Source: Escherichia coli (GTDB lineage Bacteria; Pseudomonadota; Gammaproteobacteria; Enterobacterales; Enterobacteriaceae). From it: DNA of 64,000 nt. This document shows positions 20,389 through 24,700 of this stretch, piece by piece. Where the stretch lies: assembly GCF_022846255.1 (NCBI RefSeq), contig NZ_AP025682.1. One strand, written 5' to 3'. The notes beneath the pieces were generated by a model that ran no database searches, was not told the origin of the DNA, and saw only the letters and a program-made list of their open reading frames with translations. Position numbers and translations under genes: made by a program. Positions within the stretch are counted from its first letter, which is position 1. Every line of letters begins with the position of its first letter.

Positions 20389-21240
20389 GTGTTAATTATC
20401 GAAACCCTGCCGCTGCTGCGTCAGCAAATTCGCCGCCTGCGTATGGAAGGTAAGCGCGTGGCGCTGGTGCCCACCATGGGTAACCTGCACGATGGCCATA
20501 TGAAGCTGGTCGACGAAGCCAAAGCCCGCGCCGATGTGGTCGTCGTCAGTATTTTCGTTAACCCGATGCAGTTTGACCGCCCGGAAGATCTGGCACGTTA
20601 TCCACGGACCTTGCAAGAGGACTGCGAAAAGCTGAACAAACGTAAAGTGGATTTAGTTTTCGCGCCTTCGGTAAAAGAGATCTACCCGAACGGTACAGAA
20701 ACCCACACCTATGTTGATGTTCCCGGTCTTTCCACCATGCTGGAAGGTGCCAGCCGTCCGGGACATTTTCGCGGCGTTTCGACTATCGTCAGCAAGCTGT
20801 TCAATCTGGTCCAGCCGGACATCGCCTGCTTCGGTGAAAAAGATTTTCAGCAACTGGCGCTGATCCGCAAAATGGTTGCCGATATGGGCTTCGATATTGA
20901 GATTGTCGGAGTGCCGATTATGCGCGCGAAAGACGGTCTGGCGCTCAGTTCCCGTAACGGCTATCTGACGGCGGAACAACGTAAAATTGCGCCGGGTCTC
21001 TACAAAGTCTTAAGTTCAATTGCCGACAAATTGCAGGCTGGCGAACGGGATCTCGATGAAATTATTGCTATTGCCGGGCAAGAACTGAATGAAAAAGGTT
21101 TCCGCTCCGATGATATTCAGATTCGCGATGCCGACACATTGCTGGAGGTCTCTGAAAACAGCAAACGCGCAGTGATTCTGGTAGCCGCCTGGCTTGGCGA
21201 TGCTCGCCTGATCGACAACAAACTGGTCGAACTGGCGTAA
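20389..21240 (+). CDS. panC: Pantoate--beta-alanine ligase (pantothenate synthetase)
   Basis: ORF 20389..21240 (283 aa, GTG start after AAGGA); (M)[36 protein letters not shown]. Confidence 0.93.
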
Positions 21241-21321: not shown

Positions 21322-22212
21322 TTAGTTAGAGTTAATTAGCTTATCAATCTCTGCAAGAGATAAAGCTGTCACCTCTGCAACGTCTTCCCGAGACATTCCT
21401 TTACTCAGAAGACGCAGGGCGAATTCCTGACTTACTTCCTGTCTTCCCTGCTGAATCCCCTTCTCTTCAAACCACTGCGCCAGCGTCATCATAGACTCCC
21501 CTCCCGTTTCCCTGTCTCTCACCACACCATAAAACAAATCCGCTTGTTCAGTATGACCGCGTTGCAGCATATAGTTTTGCATGGCAACTAACTGACTTCC
21601 GCTAGTGTACCCTTCGTCAATCAGCGTGACCAGTTGCTCCAGCAATAACATTAAGTCGCGCTGGCGAATATGTTTTTGCAGCAGTTCGAGAATCGCAATC
21701 CGCCGATGTTGCATGATTTCGTCATCCGGTGTGATAGTGATATCCACCAGCGGGAAAGGACTGTTATAGACGCGTCGCGCCAGCTCCGGCGAGTAAAACA
21801 TATCAAACCAGCACATTGAGAGCGGATAAGGTGTGGCCTCGCCCTGATAAAACAGAATCGGCACCACCAGCGGCAGCTTATCGTGATCCGCCTCCAGATG
21901 CCGGTGCATGGCGGCAATGGCATAGCGCATCATGCGAAAGGTCATTTTCTTATCCGGCTTGCTTTGATGTTCAATCACCACATGCAAATAACCGGGATTG
22001 CCCTGCATTTGTACGGAATAGAGTACGTCCGTGCTGTGTCCTTTCAGGCTTTCCTCAATAAAACTCCCCGACTCAAGATGCAGCGTGTCGAGGTCACACA
22101 GTTCGCGTAGCTCCGCTGGCAAATGGATATCCAGAAAGTCGCGAGCCGTTTCCGCATGCATTAAAAATTGTTTAAACACCGCATCATGCGGTGTGGTACT
22201 CGGTGCATCCAT
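21322..22212 (-). CDS. rpnC: Recombination-promoting nuclease RpnC (Rpn / transposase_31 / PD-(D/E)XK family)
   Basis: ORF 21322..22212 (296 aa) MDAPSTTPHDAVFKQFLMHAETARDFLDIHLPAELRE...; recognised as YadD/RpnC; sits between panC and panD as in E. coli. Confidence 0.8.
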   Translation of the reverse strand: MDAPSTTPHDAVFKQFLMHAETARDFLDIHLPAELRELCDLDTLHLESGSFIEESLKGHSTDVLYSVQMQGNPGYLHVVIEHQSKPDKKMTFRMMRYAIAAMHRHLEADHDKLPLVVPILFYQGEATPYPLSMCWFDMFYSPELARRVYNSPFPLVDITITPDDEIMQHRRIAILELLQKHIRQRDLMLLLEQLVTLIDEGYTSGSQLVAMQNYMLQRGHTEQADLFYGVVRDRETGGESMMTLAQWFEEKGIQQGRQEVSQEFALRLLSKGMSREDVAEVTALSLAEIDKLINSN

Positions 22213-22485
22213 CTTCCCTGCCTTCCGTGTTGTCTTGCGTGAAGGCAGTATCCAGTCAAGGTGTGCCGTCGTCAGCCGCCTCTTTAGTGTTTACCGAGCA
22301 GCGTTCAGATAAATTTCAATTGGTTACAGGCGTTACATGGCACGCTTCGGCACGGTACGCAAACTGCTGCTGCAAATGCCGTCAGATGAGTAGACACTAA
22401 ACAAAAATCGGGCAATACTGCGTGAGAATTTCCTCAAAGCAGGCATCGCCTGCTTCGTTAACGACAGGGTAGAAAGGTAGAAGTT

Positions 22486-22866
22486 ATGATTCGCACGATG
22501 CTGCAGGGCAAACTCCACCGCGTGAAAGTGACTCATGCGGACCTGCACTATGAAGGTTCTTGCGCCATTGATCAGGATTTTCTTGACGCAGCCGGTATTC
22601 TCGAAAACGAAGCCATTGATATCTGGAATGTCACCAACGGCAAGCGTTTCTCCACCTATGCCATCGCGGCAGAACGCGGTTCGAGAATTATTTCTGTTAA
22701 CGGTGCGGCAGCCCACTGCGCCAGCGTCGGCGATATTGTCATCATCGCCAGCTTCGTTACCATGCCAGATGAAGAAGCTCGCACCTGGCGACCCAACGTC
22801 GCCTATTTTGAAGGCGACAACGAAATGAAACGTACCGCGAAAGCGATTCCGGTACAGGTTGCCTGA
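22486..22866 (+). CDS. panD: Aspartate 1-decarboxylase proenzyme
   Basis: ORF 22486..22866 (126 aa) [33 protein letters not shown]; self-cleavage site G-S present. Confidence 0.93.
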
Positions 22867-22869
22867 TTG

Positions 22870-24099
22870 TTATCCCTGCGGCTGGTTACTCACCAGCCGC
22901 GACATCGTCTCCAGCGAATCCGTTCTTAAGATATAAAGTCGTTTTAGTAACAACGGATTATCCCCCGGTTTTACTTTGCCTTTCATGGTCGTCACCGCCA
23001 GGTGAAATCCGGCTTCTTTTGCTGCCTTCACGGCTTTGTCATTAAATCCGCCAAATGGATAAGAAAGATACAAAACATGTGGATTAAATTGCGCCAGAGC
23101 GCGGCGTGAACGTGCAAAATCAAACAGAATATTGTGCTCACTACGGCTCAGCAATATAGGCCGCCGATAACCATCTATCCGATGCAAAAAATGAGTATGT
23201 GACTGGAAATCAAATATATCGCGAATTTCGTTAAGTTCAGAAACGCTCATAAATTGCAGCGATTTTGGGTTCCATTTCTGCGGGTGACGTTTGATGCGCG
23301 AGGTAACAATAAACGCCGTCGCCTTCATACCATATTGTTTCAACACAGGATATGCATAGCGGCTCACCGACTTGAGGCCATCATCAAAGGTAATTACCAC
23401 CGCTCGCGCAGGGAGATTGATCTTATTCTTCACGTAACCTTCCAGCTGCGCCATGCTCAGTGTCGCGTATCCCCTGTCGCGCAGCCAGGCCATCTGGTTA
23501 TTGAAAGCGCGTACCGAGGTGGTCGTCGAAGTATGGCGAAAACGGGTGTTTTCTTCGTCGCGCAAAATATGGTGATAGGTTAGCACCGGCAAGCCATTAT
23601 CGGGTTGGGCATCCAGCGCGCTGATATAGGCCAGTCGATCGCCAATGCGGATCTGATACCAGGTTTGATTTAACCTGTCTTTCAGTTTATGCAAAATCGG
23701 GTAGCGCAAATTGTCCGCCAGTACTCCAAATGGCGCACTGCCCACACTCGGCGCGTTATAAACCGGCGTATCTTTCCAGGTTATTAAGTTCTGATTACTC
23801 AGCGGCTTGTTGAGGTCACCCAAACCATCTTCAACTTTTTGTCGCCCCTGAACCGGCTCGAGATGGCCTTTATCGATAAACCCTTTACCAAAGCCAAAAT
23901 TAAATACGTAATAACTTGCGGCAGTGGGCTCCACGGCAATGATTTGTCCGGCCCGAATATTCCCTACCGTCACCATTTTGTCGCCAATTTGCGCCCAGAC
24001 CGCGGCATTTTCGATGGTTTGCATATAACGGGCAGGTAACGCGGCACTGACACTTGCGGTAAACAGCATCAGCAGGAGAATAACAGCTTGTTTGTACAT
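22870..24099 (-). CDS. yadE: Predicted secreted polysaccharide deacetylase (NodB-homology domain protein)
   Basis: ORF 22870..24099 (409 aa); signal peptide [19 protein letters not shown]; recognised as YadE; stop is 3 nt from panD stop. Confidence 0.8.
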
Positions 24100-24162
24100 G
24101 AAAAAATAACCGAGGGTGAAACAACGCTTTTATTGTAGCAAAAGCGTCATCAGAATCGCGGG

Positions 24163-24603
24163 TTAATACTCATACAAATTATGTTTGAGGACGAAAGGCG
24201 GATTTTTTTGTTGTTGGTGCCAAAGACTACTCACCTCCGGCGCACCCAGTTCGACAATATGCTCGCGAAACGCTGAACTGGTCATGGTTTCACGGCAAGC
24301 CATCATCTGTTCAATTAACGGTAACGTGACACCAGAAATCACTTCGCAACGGGAGTGTTTGTGGCTTAATAATGAAGCCACGCGGTACGGTGGCGCTCCG
24401 GCTATATCGGTTAAAAAGATAACGCCCTCACCAGAGTCCGTTTCATGCAAGGCATCGCACATCATGCGGCTGAGCATATTAGAGCTTAATCCGCGCCAGA
24501 AATTCACGGCCCGGCACTGAAGAAGTGCCCCATGTTTTTTCTCCAGCGCATCCAGTAGCTCTTGCGCCCGGTCATCGTGACAGGTAATTACCCAACCTAA
24601 CAT
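24163..24603 (-). CDS. yadI: Putative PTS enzyme IIA component (mannose-family EIIA-like)
   Basis: ORF 24163..24603 (146 aa) MLGWVITCHDDRAQELLDALEKKHGALLQ; recognised as YadI. Confidence 0.78.
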   Translation of the reverse strand: MLGWVITCHDDRAQELLDALEKKHGALLQCRAVNFWRGLSSNMLSRMMCDALHETDSGEGVIFLTDIAGAPPYRVASLLSHKHSRCEVISGVTLPLIEQMMACRETMTSSAFREHIVELGAPEVSSLWHQQQKNPPFVLKHNLYEY

Positions 24604-24667
24604 CGCCTTCCTCCTTAGCCGAAAATCAGTCTACCCTGACCATTGTTGATAAAGGGTGATAGCCGTC

Positions 24668-24700
24668 AAAACTCCTCTCCCCCAAATCCAGAGGAGAGGA
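24668..24700 (-). terminator. Intrinsic terminator downstream of yadH
   Basis: Stem 24673-24680 / 24693-24700 (CCTCTCC/GGAGAGG core) 7 nt after yadH stop; on the minus strand followed by TTTT (24668-24671). Confidence 0.45.

Follow-up and report, generated by a model that had tools for sequence, protein, structure and literature searches.

Collision-type bidirectional terminators of convergent genes were reportedly described by Ju et al. in 2019. These elements are described as intergenic and Rho-independent; they "do not resemble intrinsic terminators" and require a stem-loop to place the collision (Wang et al. 2022, 10.1101/2022.10.23.513370). The canonical bidirectional intrinsic terminator is composed of an A tract, a G+C stem and a T tract, with one palindromic stem per convergent junction. 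In the class described by Dar and Sorek, steady-state 3′ ends lie a few nucleotides past a stable stem-loop without a U or A tract, and read-through occurs under Rho inhibition; some protective stem-loops of this class are explicitly located within the coding sequence of the next gene downstream (Dar & Sorek 2018, Nucleic Acids Res 46:6797, PMC6061677). Furthermore, ExcludonFinder collects pairs of adjacent convergent genes with overlapping transcript boundaries; its definition consists of coverage thresholds only, and it is mutual exclusion and RNase III processing that give an excludon its meaning (Nucleic Acids Res 2025, PMC12288877).

Here we compare these systems with the junction of panD and yadE in a window of 64,000 nt from Escherichia coli (contig NZ_AP025682.1). 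The panD end resembles the Dar and Sorek class: it follows a stable stem without a U or A tract, and read-through rises under Rho inhibition; a mild excess of C over G downstream may be a further resemblance. Unlike in the cases of Dar and Sorek, the host gene is convergent and the stem is read as codons of the opposite strand. Beyond what is described for that class, the present locus shows compensatory changes in the stem, reduced synonymous variation, and a stem that is lost where there is a hairpin between the genes. With collision-type terminators, the locus shares the convergent gene pair, a palindromic stem-loop unlike an intrinsic terminator and a precise end position. In contrast to that class, the panD stem lies inside an ORF, the read-through is Rho-dependent and just one of the two 3′ ends is mapped. 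The single palindromic stem is also found in the canonical bidirectional terminator; however, the E. coli stem has neither A tract nor T tract, and the junction lacks a spacer that could accommodate a terminator of this kind. A terminator of the canonical form is present in the panD-yadE spacer of Buttiauxella noackiae (L080), which contains AAAAAAAGACCTGCTTAACAAAGCAGGTCTTTTT. Finally, panD and yadE are adjacent and convergent and have overlapping transcripts, as do the ExcludonFinder pairs.

Results

The stop codons of panD and yadE are 3 nt apart

The features of the junction are summarized in Table 1. A preliminary description of this DNA had placed the two convergent stop codons 3 nt apart, and the sequence, the ORFs and the RefSeq annotation all agree with it. 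The segment 22860-22875 of the window is tgccTGAttgTTAtcc, in which "tta" at 22870-22872 is the TAA stop of yadE on the minus strand. PanD matched PF02261 (Asp_decarbox) over residues 1-114 of 126 with an E value of 7.5e-47 and 158.4 bits (cut-off 25), and YadE matched PF01522 (Polysacc_deac_1) over residues 228-366 of 409 with an E value of 3.9e-21 and 75.7 bits (cut-off 23.1). The gene names in RefSeq agree with these family matches. In the RefSeq annotation of K-12 MG1655, yadE is located at 145081..146310 (+) and panD at 146314..146694 (-), with a gap of 3 nt, and the annotation of strain MS1170 has the identical gap. A mis-assigned stop of panD or yadE, a possibility raised in the preliminary description, is excluded by the annotation in MS1170, MG1655 and thousands of further genomes together with the Pfam matches; because Pfam confirms both reading frames, neither stop can be mis-assigned.

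The junction was found in 5,424 of 5,426 complete E. coli genomes. Of 62 Enterobacteriaceae species in which panD is the neighbor of yadE, 47 have 1-10 nt between the two stop codons. The distance is larger in Kluyvera (32-35 nt) and in Buttiauxella, Cedecea, Phytobacter and Kosakonia (53-309 nt). The tight junction is conserved across species, but the exact distance of 3 nt is not. Within the window, panD/yadE is the tightest convergent junction: ten others have gaps of 21-939 nt on a crude ORF map, which was built by greedy picking and in which panD itself was displaced by a spurious 127-aa antisense ORF.

Table 1. Features at the panD-yadE junction, in window positions
Feature	Position	Strand	Basis and remarks
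panD CDS, aspartate 1-decarboxylase, 126 aa	22486..22866	+	ORF, Pfam, RefSeq annotation; stop TGA 22864-22866
Spacer "ttg", 3 nt, separating both stop codons	22867..22869	.	Sequence; same 3-nt gap annotated in MS1170 and MG1655
yadE CDS, polysaccharide deacetylase family, putative lipoprotein, 409 aa	22870..24099	-	ORF, Pfam, RefSeq; stop TAA 22870-22872
panD 3′ UTR	22867..22908	+	Mapped steady-state ends 22905 (Term-seq) and 22907/22908 (TRS)
Hairpin GCGGCTGGT-TACTC-ACCAGCCGC	22878..22900	+	Inverted-repeat search; proposed protective 3′ stem-loop of panD mRNA
Stretch antisense to yadE in which Rho would end panD read-through	22906..23400, boundaries approximate	+	Adams et al. 2021, Supplementary file 2
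Second inverted repeat AATCCGTTCTTA ... TAACAACGGATT	22917..22959	+	Inverted-repeat search; conserved feature in yadE codons D-N-P-L-L...L-R-T-D
Weak bulged hairpin with U-rich GUUUCAUUUCGUU tail	22832..22855	-	Terminator scan and fold; downstream of the yadE stop, in the last panD codons

The mapped 3′ end of panD lies inside yadE

MG1655 146275(-) is the dominant 3′ end of panD in the Term-seq data of Adams et al. (2021, PMC7815308). This end is classed as "primary, antisense" (panD / yadE), and its locus is entered three times in Supplementary file 1, which has a tab for each growth condition. We converted MG1655 positions to window positions and checked the conversion against the MG1655 locus. 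The Term-seq end then falls at 22905, which is 39 nt beyond the end of the panD ORF and 36 nt into that of yadE. Independently, TRS placed the panD 3′ end at 146272/146273(-), with a 3′ UTR of 43 nt (PMC10687069, Supplementary Data 2-4); the converted positions are 22907/22908. The mapped ends sit 5-8 nt past the stem of the hairpin at 22878-22900 (5 nt in the case of Term-seq), and the panD 3′ UTR is antisense to the yadE ORF throughout, except for its first 3 nt. With the panD 3′ end at this position, any yadE mRNA that extends through the yadE stop codon is complementary to at least the last 36 nt of the panD mRNA.

In addition, yadE-panD is included in Table 1 of the ExcludonFinder paper, which contains 165 convergent pairs with overlap in half or more (50%) of 58 RNA-seq samples from MG1655 (PMC12288877). 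No 3′ end of the yadE transcript is present in the published 3′-end tables of Adams et al. 2021 (PMC7815308) or TRS (PMC10687069). The published data support an overlap of the panD and yadE transcripts at their 3′ ends: the antisense overlap that had been deduced from the gene layout is seen in the Term-seq and TRS ends inside yadE and in the ExcludonFinder listing.

Read-through antisense to yadE rises with bicyclomycin

The published tables also contain a Rho region at 145798(-), antisense to yadE, with a Rho score of 7.18 (p 8e-27), a value that is taken over 800-nt windows as a region-level measure, not a locus-specific assay, and that bicyclomycin read-through from upstream could inflate, for example from panC, for which a separate Rho region is listed at 147624 (Adams et al. 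2021, PMC7815308). The score peak corresponds to about 23382 in the window. At this position, the reads upstream and downstream were 214 and 27 in untreated cells, and 412 and 373 in the presence of bicyclomycin (PMC7815308). Past the stem, C is mildly favored over G within 150 nt (41 C, 28 G), and a span of 500 nt contains 118 C and 105 G. The C/G ratios of the first three 50-nt windows are 1.22, 1.36 and 1.88, and those of the following windows vary between 0.5 and 2.0.

A stable hairpin is encoded in the last codons of yadE

The hairpin starts 12 nt after the panD stop and has 9 perfect base pairs, 7 of which are G-C, and a loop of 5 nt. It is encoded in the yadE codons S-R-L-V-S-N-Q-P, within the last 11 codons of the gene. 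Folding yields -18.5 kcal/mol (z -5.3) for the plus strand and -19.5 kcal/mol (z -4.4) for the minus strand. The preliminary description had stated that there is no room for a terminator between the two genes. This is correct for the intergenic space, none of which is usable; however, a 3′-end element does exist, in the form of this hairpin within the coding region of yadE.

The hairpin does not resemble an intrinsic terminator. Its stem-loop is rich in G+C, but it lacks the U tract, as well as the preceding A tract of a bidirectional element. The sequence 3′ of the stem, GACAUCGUCUCC, is not U-rich and contains 3 U in 12 nt. On the plus strand, the stem is preceded by UUAUCCCU and followed by GACAUCGU; on the minus strand, it is followed by AGGGAUAACAAUC. 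A scan for the terminator consensus (at least 5 T in 8) did not call the stem on either strand. When the region 22200-24700 was scanned against Rfam at a permissive threshold, no known RNA family was found, and the single match, to a snoRNA, was at chance level (E 0.16).

The hairpin is conserved with compensatory changes

We surveyed the hairpin in 77 Enterobacteriaceae loci. Compensatory double changes were found at 4 of the 9 stem pairs (22 cells), and none of 500 shuffles reached the observed covariation score, although these controls ignore phylogeny. The cells of the stem are 95.2% paired when read on the panD-sense RNA and 91.0% paired when read on the yadE sense, as compared with 11-58% in slid controls. 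Compensatory changes are found at synonymous sites, from CTG/CAG to TTA/CAA and from CGG/CCG to AGG/CCT. In Superficieibacter (L018), a compensatory change alters the amino acids, and the perfect stem is kept. In a divergent E. coli lineage, the stem-loop is invariant though the flanks differ. Synonymous diversity in the 9-codon window over the stem is 0.254, as compared with a gene mean of 0.462, and is the lowest of 378 yadE windows; the rare codon CGG in the stem is kept in 72 of 78 sequences. From these sequence comparisons, we infer that selection for the RNA structure of the hairpin constrains the codons of yadE. RNAalifold gave a weak consensus on a 104-nt alignment (-6.97 kcal/mol), in which the inner 4 pairs alone of the hairpin were recovered; the case for the hairpin is built on the explicit pair counts, not on RNAalifold, which recovered either stem in part.

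The state of the stem differs with the width of the gap. Where the gap is 10 nt or less, 413 of 423 cells of the stem are Watson-Crick pairs and the mean dG is -15.7. Where it is 32 nt or more, the stem is decayed (96 of 135 cells; dG about -6). Fourteen of the 15 wide spacers were folded, and each has its own hairpin, of -19 to -60 kcal/mol. The embedded stem thus appears to be lost in genera with an intergenic hairpin, a reciprocity that could partly reflect ancestry, since wide gaps are found in the most distant genera. The hairpin is also kept in 16 species in which a fimbrial gene, instead of panD, is the convergent neighbor of yadE, and it is therefore not specific to panD.

Other elements at the junction

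The second inverted repeat consists of 12-nt arms around a 19-nt loop; 11 of the 12 arm positions are complementary here, and the arms match perfectly in the majority of the other genera. Over 76 distinct sequences, 86.3% of its cells are paired and 33 cells are one-sided G.U on the panD sense; no compensatory change was found among these sequences. Its rare codons AGA (62 of 78) and TTA (54 of 78) are conserved. We considered this repeat as part of the 3′-end structure; as it shows no compensatory change, we treat it as a conserved feature only. The weak hairpin at 22832..22855 was considered as a terminator of yadE. This candidate was rejected: its fold is weak (-11.2 to -11.5 kcal/mol, z -0.8), and in 46 distinct tight-gap sequences two of the nine pairs are for the most part broken (14 of 46 and 30 of 46 paired) and none shows compensation. 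The absence of a yadE 3′ end from the two published tables likewise gives this candidate no support.

Discussion

We propose that panD is probably terminated by Rho downstream of the hairpin and that its RNA is then trimmed by exonucleases to the protective stem-loop in the last 11 codons of yadE. RNA polymerase coming from panD would traverse the hairpin and go on antisense to yadE, and Rho would stop it within the following few hundred nucleotides. Subsequently, 3′-to-5′ exonucleases would trim the RNA back as far as the hairpin, leaving a sharp and stable 3′ end 5-8 nt past the stem (22905-22908). The mature panD mRNA would have a 3′ UTR of 39-43 nt, which would be complementary to a full-length yadE mRNA at the 3′ end of the latter. 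We infer that the mapped end arises by this trimming, not by termination at the hairpin, and that the hairpin stabilizes the panD mRNA. The end element would lie inside yadE because the convergent genes have no usable intergenic space.

The overlap of the two transcripts may also be viewed as a regulatory excludon, in which the 3′ ends of panD and yadE pair, RNase III cuts the duplex or the polymerases interfere, and the expression of each gene lowers that of the other. The complementarity of at least 36 nt is real, and ExcludonFinder, which includes the pair, offers this logic for convergent overlaps generally (PMC12288877). However, neither anticorrelated expression nor RNase III cleavage of panD/yadE is reported in the literature examined, and the shared metabolic pathway claimed in PMC12288877 is unsupported by the Pfam families of PanD and YadE. 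Moreover, if yadE is expressed weakly, its mRNA could titrate only a small part of the panD mRNA. We regard such regulation as unlikely; it is a consequence that is compatible with trimming to the stem-loop and does not replace it.

The palindrome folds equally well on both strands without a U tract, and it lies between convergent genes whose transcription overlaps (PMC12288877). These features would suit a collision-type bidirectional terminator, in which the panD and yadE polymerases meet at a position set by the stem and dissociate without Rho. The Rho independence of that class (10.1101/2022.10.23.513370) is at odds with the strong bicyclomycin-dependent read-through at this locus (PMC7815308), and the absence of a yadE 3′ end from two 3′-end data sets suggests that transcription of yadE is too weak to provide polymerases for a collision. 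The wobble pairs bear on the same point. The 47 tight-gap genomes contain 10 non-Watson-Crick cells, and 9 of these form G.U on the panD-sense RNA but A.C when read on the yadE sense; in the covariation counts, the panD sense has 17 G.U cells and a single A.C. This asymmetry suggests selection on one RNA strand, the panD sense, and a collision at the stem is accordingly rather improbable.

The sharp 3′ end 5-8 nt past a very stable stem, seen in independent data sets, could instead mark a non-canonical intrinsic terminator of panD at about 22905, perhaps aided by NusA or NusG, with Rho handling the fraction that escapes. In favor of such a terminator, only about 13% of the reads go on downstream in untreated cells (27/214). 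Nevertheless, the stem is followed by few U and was not called by the consensus scan, and its anatomy is typical of Rho-dependent ends (Dar & Sorek 2018, PMC6061677). Bicyclomycin raises the ratio of downstream to upstream reads to about 0.9; therefore, the hairpin alone stops few polymerases. Intrinsic termination at the hairpin is very unlikely in our judgment.

That the stem-loop has no RNA function, being a by-product of the conserved C-terminal peptide of YadE (SRL[VI]SNQPQG) at which exonucleases stall by chance, is the least probable reading: a stall at the first hairpin would require no selection, and the peptide tail keeps its length and most of its sequence where the stem is degraded (for example SRLISNQTKP in Buttiauxella), but this reading is disfavored by the compensatory changes at synonymous sites, by the stem of L018, which stays as the amino acids change, by the lowest synonymous diversity of the gene and the retained CGG codon, and by the near absence of A.C on the panD sense.

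In addition to trimming at the protective stem-loop of panD, a broader view may be put forward tentatively, as a possibility that we hold to be somewhat less than even. The last 11 codons of yadE may be a long-lived dual-coding segment, which through most of the Enterobacteriaceae radiation would have been selected mainly as the antisense 3′-end stem-loop of the converging gene, panD or a fimbrial operon. In evolution, the segment would be interchangeable with an intergenic hairpin, and it would physically couple the expression of panD, a pantothenate gene, to the envelope gene yadE.

The 3-nt layout, the mapped panD end and the overlapping transcription are already published: the reference annotation contains the junction, two 3′-end tables contain the panD end, and a published overlap list contains the pair. 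The value of this locus as a discovery is small in this respect. It may serve as a worked example that the absence of an intergenic region is not the absence of a 3′-end signal, and that the RNA structure of a gene on the opposite strand can constrain a coding sequence, here with rare codons that are kept and the lowest synonymous diversity of the gene. If the 3′ end of yadE were recoded synonymously or deleted, the panD mRNA could inadvertently be destabilized, and this caution bears on the design of knock-outs and on the engineering of strains for pantothenate or beta-alanine.

Convergent stop codons of panD and yadE

The window is a piece of the E. coli chromosome in the reverse orientation of the K-12 map, and its segment 22400-24150 is 99.8% identical to strain MS1170. 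The preliminary description had placed convergent panD and yadE stop codons only 3 nt apart. The junction sequence (22860-22875) is tgccTGAttgTTAtcc, with a 3 nt stop-to-stop spacer. The panD product matches Pfam PF02261 (aspartate decarboxylase, E 7.5e-47) and the yadE product matches PF01522 (polysaccharide deacetylase, E 3.9e-21; domain end at residue 366), and thus both frames are fixed. The layout is identical in the RefSeq annotations of MS1170 and MG1655 (yadE 145081..146310, panD 146314..146694), and the junction was found in 5,424 of 5,426 complete E. coli genomes. Thus, the observation is confirmed, and the 3-nt junction already belongs to the reference annotation.

An unannotated 127-aa ORF covers, on the opposite strand, the panD promoter region and the 5' half of the gene. 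This ORF is almost certainly spurious; length-greedy ORF picking prefers it because it exceeds panD by one residue. In addition, 61 E. coli plasmid records carry panD with a partial polysaccharide deacetylase gene (about 650 nt, 97.5% identity to the chromosome; for example, NZ_CP117007.1 20720-21371), a chromosomal panD-yadE fragment located on plasmids.

Features at and around the panD-yadE junction (window positions unless a locus is named)
Feature	Position	Strand or location	Description
Local gene order			panB-panC (+), rpnC (-), panD (+), yadE-yadI-yadH-yadG (-)
panD ORF	22486..22866	+	126 aa; TGA stop 22864-22866
yadE ORF	22870..24099	-	409 aa; TAA stop, from 'tta' 22870-22872
Unannotated ORF	22333-22716	-	127 aa
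Embedded hairpin	22878-22900	starts 12 nt past panD stop	perfect inverted repeat GCGGCTGGT-TACTC-ACCAGCCGC
Second inverted repeat	22917-22959	inside yadE, panD-sense	AATCCGTTCTTA / TAAGAACGGATT; 12-nt arms, 19-nt variable loop
Bulged hairpin	22855->22832	downstream of yadE stop, within panD	U-rich tail
Terminator-like site	22787-22813	+, within panD CDS, ~60 nt before stop	GGCGACCCAACGTCGCC then TATTTTGAAG
Fimbrial gene (example)	L032 4249-5322	just downstream of yadE	
Enterobacterial yadE loci with fimbrial neighbour			L006, L012, L013, L017, L018, L031, L032, L035, L036, L039, L045, L047, L060, L070, L071, L077

Published transcript ends within yadE

In the Term-seq data of Adams et al. 2021 (eLife, PMC7815308; Supplementary file 1), the dominant 3' end is MG1655 146275(-), with the label 'primary, antisense' (panD / yadE). 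Three entries in this file, whose tabs each cover one growth condition, are for this locus. For conversion, the 61-nt sequence quoted for the end was placed on the MG1655 locus. The end is the T at window position 22905, which is 5 nt beyond the embedded stem, 39 nt beyond the panD stop and 36 nt within the yadE ORF. An independent analysis, TRS (Nat Commun 2023, PMC10687069), gives a primary panD terminus at 146272/146273 (window 22907/22908) and a panD 3' UTR of 43 nt with the same stem predicted. Neither set of tables has an entry for a yadE 3' end. ExcludonFinder (NAR 2025, PMC12288877) lists yadE-panD among 165 convergent pairs whose transcripts, as delimited by coverage, overlap in 50% or more of 58 MG1655 RNA-seq samples. 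Because the mapped panD ends lie within yadE and the pair is listed by ExcludonFinder, the earlier proposal that the two transcripts overlap in antisense at their 3' ends is supported. At least the last 36 nt of panD mRNA are complementary to any yadE mRNA that reaches its own stop codon. Excludon-type regulation of panD and yadE is possible as a consequence of this overlap. The same-pathway remark made with ExcludonFinder (PMC12288877) is unsupported by the protein families of PanD and YadE.

Origin of the panD mRNA 3' end

Folding energies of the embedded hairpin are -18.5 kcal/mol for the + strand (z -5.3 relative to shuffles) and -19.5 kcal/mol for the - strand. The hairpin is contained entirely in yadE, in the codons S-R-L-V-S-N-Q-P of the C-terminal tail, beyond the Pfam deacetylase domain. 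The stem is not followed by a U tract on either strand and was not called by a consensus terminator scan; an Rfam search of the region gave no family match.

Adams et al. (PMC7815308, Supplementary file 2) report a Rho termination region antisense to yadE at 145798(-), about window 23382 (Rho score 7.18, p = 8e-27). The score is regenerated from the read counts 214, 27, 412 and 373 as (373/412)/(27/214). From these published counts, about 13% of reads continue downstream in untreated cells versus about 90% with bicyclomycin. According to Dar & Sorek 2018 (PMC6061677), stems of Rho-dependent ends shield RNA from PNPase and RNase II, with a mild C-over-G bias downstream of such stems. The panD end matches the sequence features of this class, with the C-over-G bias only suggestive (C/G ratio 1.2-1.9 in the first 150 nt downstream). 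Because of the bicyclomycin read-through and these features, we favour an origin in which Rho would terminate panD read-through within antisense yadE and exonucleases would then trim the RNA back to the embedded stem.

A collision-type bidirectional terminator (Ju 2019; Wang 2022) at the stem is unlikely. A palindromic stem without a U tract at a convergent junction fits such an element; however, the class is described as Rho-independent (Wang 2022, 10.1101/2022.10.23.513370), and yadE transcription seems too poor to supply collisions. The lack of a U tract and the near-complete read-through with bicyclomycin speak against a non-canonical intrinsic terminator.

The terminator-like site within the panD CDS is probably a chance match because no published 3' end was seen there. 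The bulged hairpin was considered as a yadE 3'-end element and rejected, being weak (z -0.8) and not kept across species; folding and cross-species comparison gave no sign of a 3'-end element dedicated to yadE at the junction. The neighbouring convergent pair rpnC-panC (rpnC end at window 21322, panC end at 21240) is also a listed convergent excludon (PMC12288877). A Rho region antisense to rpnC (yadD) is reported at 147624(-) with a Rho score of 16.9 (PMC7815308), and TRS gives a primary panC end at 147902/3 (PMC10687069). Thus panC seems to end like panD, running into the antisense strand of its neighbour.

Conservation of the stem in Enterobacteriaceae

A YadE scan with one genome per species gave 80 enterobacterial loci. 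Between the panD and yadE stops, 47 genomes (Escherichia, Citrobacter, Salmonella arizonae and diarizonae, Enterobacter, Lelliottia, Leclercia, Trabulsiella and others) have 1-10 nt; Kluyvera has 32-35 nt, and Buttiauxella, Cedecea, Phytobacter and Kosakonia have 53-309 nt. No panD match lies beside yadE in 18 loci, and 16 of these genomes were taken into the hairpin analysis. In these 16 species (Citrobacter, Enterobacter, Lelliottia, Superficieibacter and others), the gene facing yadE is the final one of a chaperone-usher fimbrial operon (PF00419); 0-5 nt separate the two stops, and the hairpin in yadE is intact.

Pairing was scored across 78 sequences aligned without gaps. For the nine pairs of the stem, pairing is 95.2% in the panD sense versus 91.0% in the yadE sense, and slid controls reach only 11-58%. 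Compensatory double changes occur at four of the nine pairs (22 cells); the covariation score was reached in 0 of 500 shuffles, which ignore relatedness, and the RNAalifold consensus is weak. For example, several genera have A-U in place of G-C at stem position 8. Synonymous Leu and Gln codons account for a change from C-G to U-A at position 5, and synonymous Arg and Pro codons for one from C-G to A-U at position 2. Superficieibacter has G-C instead of U-A together with altered amino acids (tail ARRVSNPPR*), and the stem is still perfect. Synonymous codon diversity over the stem is 0.254 (9-codon window; mean 0.462), the lowest of 378 yadE windows, and the rare Arg codon CGG is retained in 72 of 78 sequences. 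In a divergent E. coli lineage (strain E1624), the spacer, the yadE stop codon and the positions just 3' of the stem are changed, and the stem-loop interior is unchanged.

Among the 423 stem cells of the 47 tight-gap genomes, 413 are Watson-Crick; of the other ten, nine are G.U in panD-sense RNA, equivalent to A.C in yadE-sense RNA. This strand asymmetry suggests that selection acts on the yadE-antisense RNA. The compensatory substitutions and the strand-asymmetric ones speak against the stem being a by-product of YadE peptide conservation. The stem sits in the less conserved gene of the pair; at the PanD C-terminus, the protein is nearly invariant and synonymous variation is ordinary.

The stem has decayed in the 15 wide-gap genomes (96 of 135 cells Watson-Crick), with a mean energy of -5 to -6.5 kcal/mol versus about -15 in tight-gap genomes. 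Each of the 14 wide spacers folded contains its own hairpin (-19 to -60 kcal/mol), and that of Buttiauxella noackiae is a textbook A-tract/stem/T-tract bidirectional terminator. This reciprocity is confounded with phylogeny, the genera with wide gaps being also the most distant ones.

The wide spacers of Phytobacter and Kosakonia (yadE loci L073, 4231-4394, L074 and L075) resemble palindromic-element insertions; that of L073 begins ATCAGGCAAATGGGC, finishes GCCCATTATGCCTGAT and folds with -67 kcal/mol. Therefore, the wide gap in this lineage may be derived from a tight junction. The yadE frame stops early in Citrobacter amalonaticus AUH_CA_2023_1 (L053, tail ...KGKVKPGG*) and Kluyvera genomosp. 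3 YDC799 (L069, tail ...PFGGITRRR*), which points to a frameshift or a yadE pseudogene, or to errors in sequencing.

The arms of the second inverted repeat have one mismatch in E. coli and are perfect in most genera. This repeat, together with its rare codons AGA and TTA, is strongly conserved and shows 33 one-sided G.U cells in the panD sense and no compensatory changes. It could be a further structure in panD read-through RNA.

The gene layout, the location of the panD 3' end within yadE and the overlap of the transcripts were all previously published or annotated, and the feature as a whole is already known and of low interest. The stem would be one of the protective 3' stem-loops already described for Rho-dependent transcripts. 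In the literature on this junction and stem class, we found no report of selection on the stem or of hairpin exchange. Our additions, which leave the category of the feature unchanged, are comparative evidence suggesting that the stem is under selection within yadE codons and that it may trade places with the intergenic hairpins of other genera.
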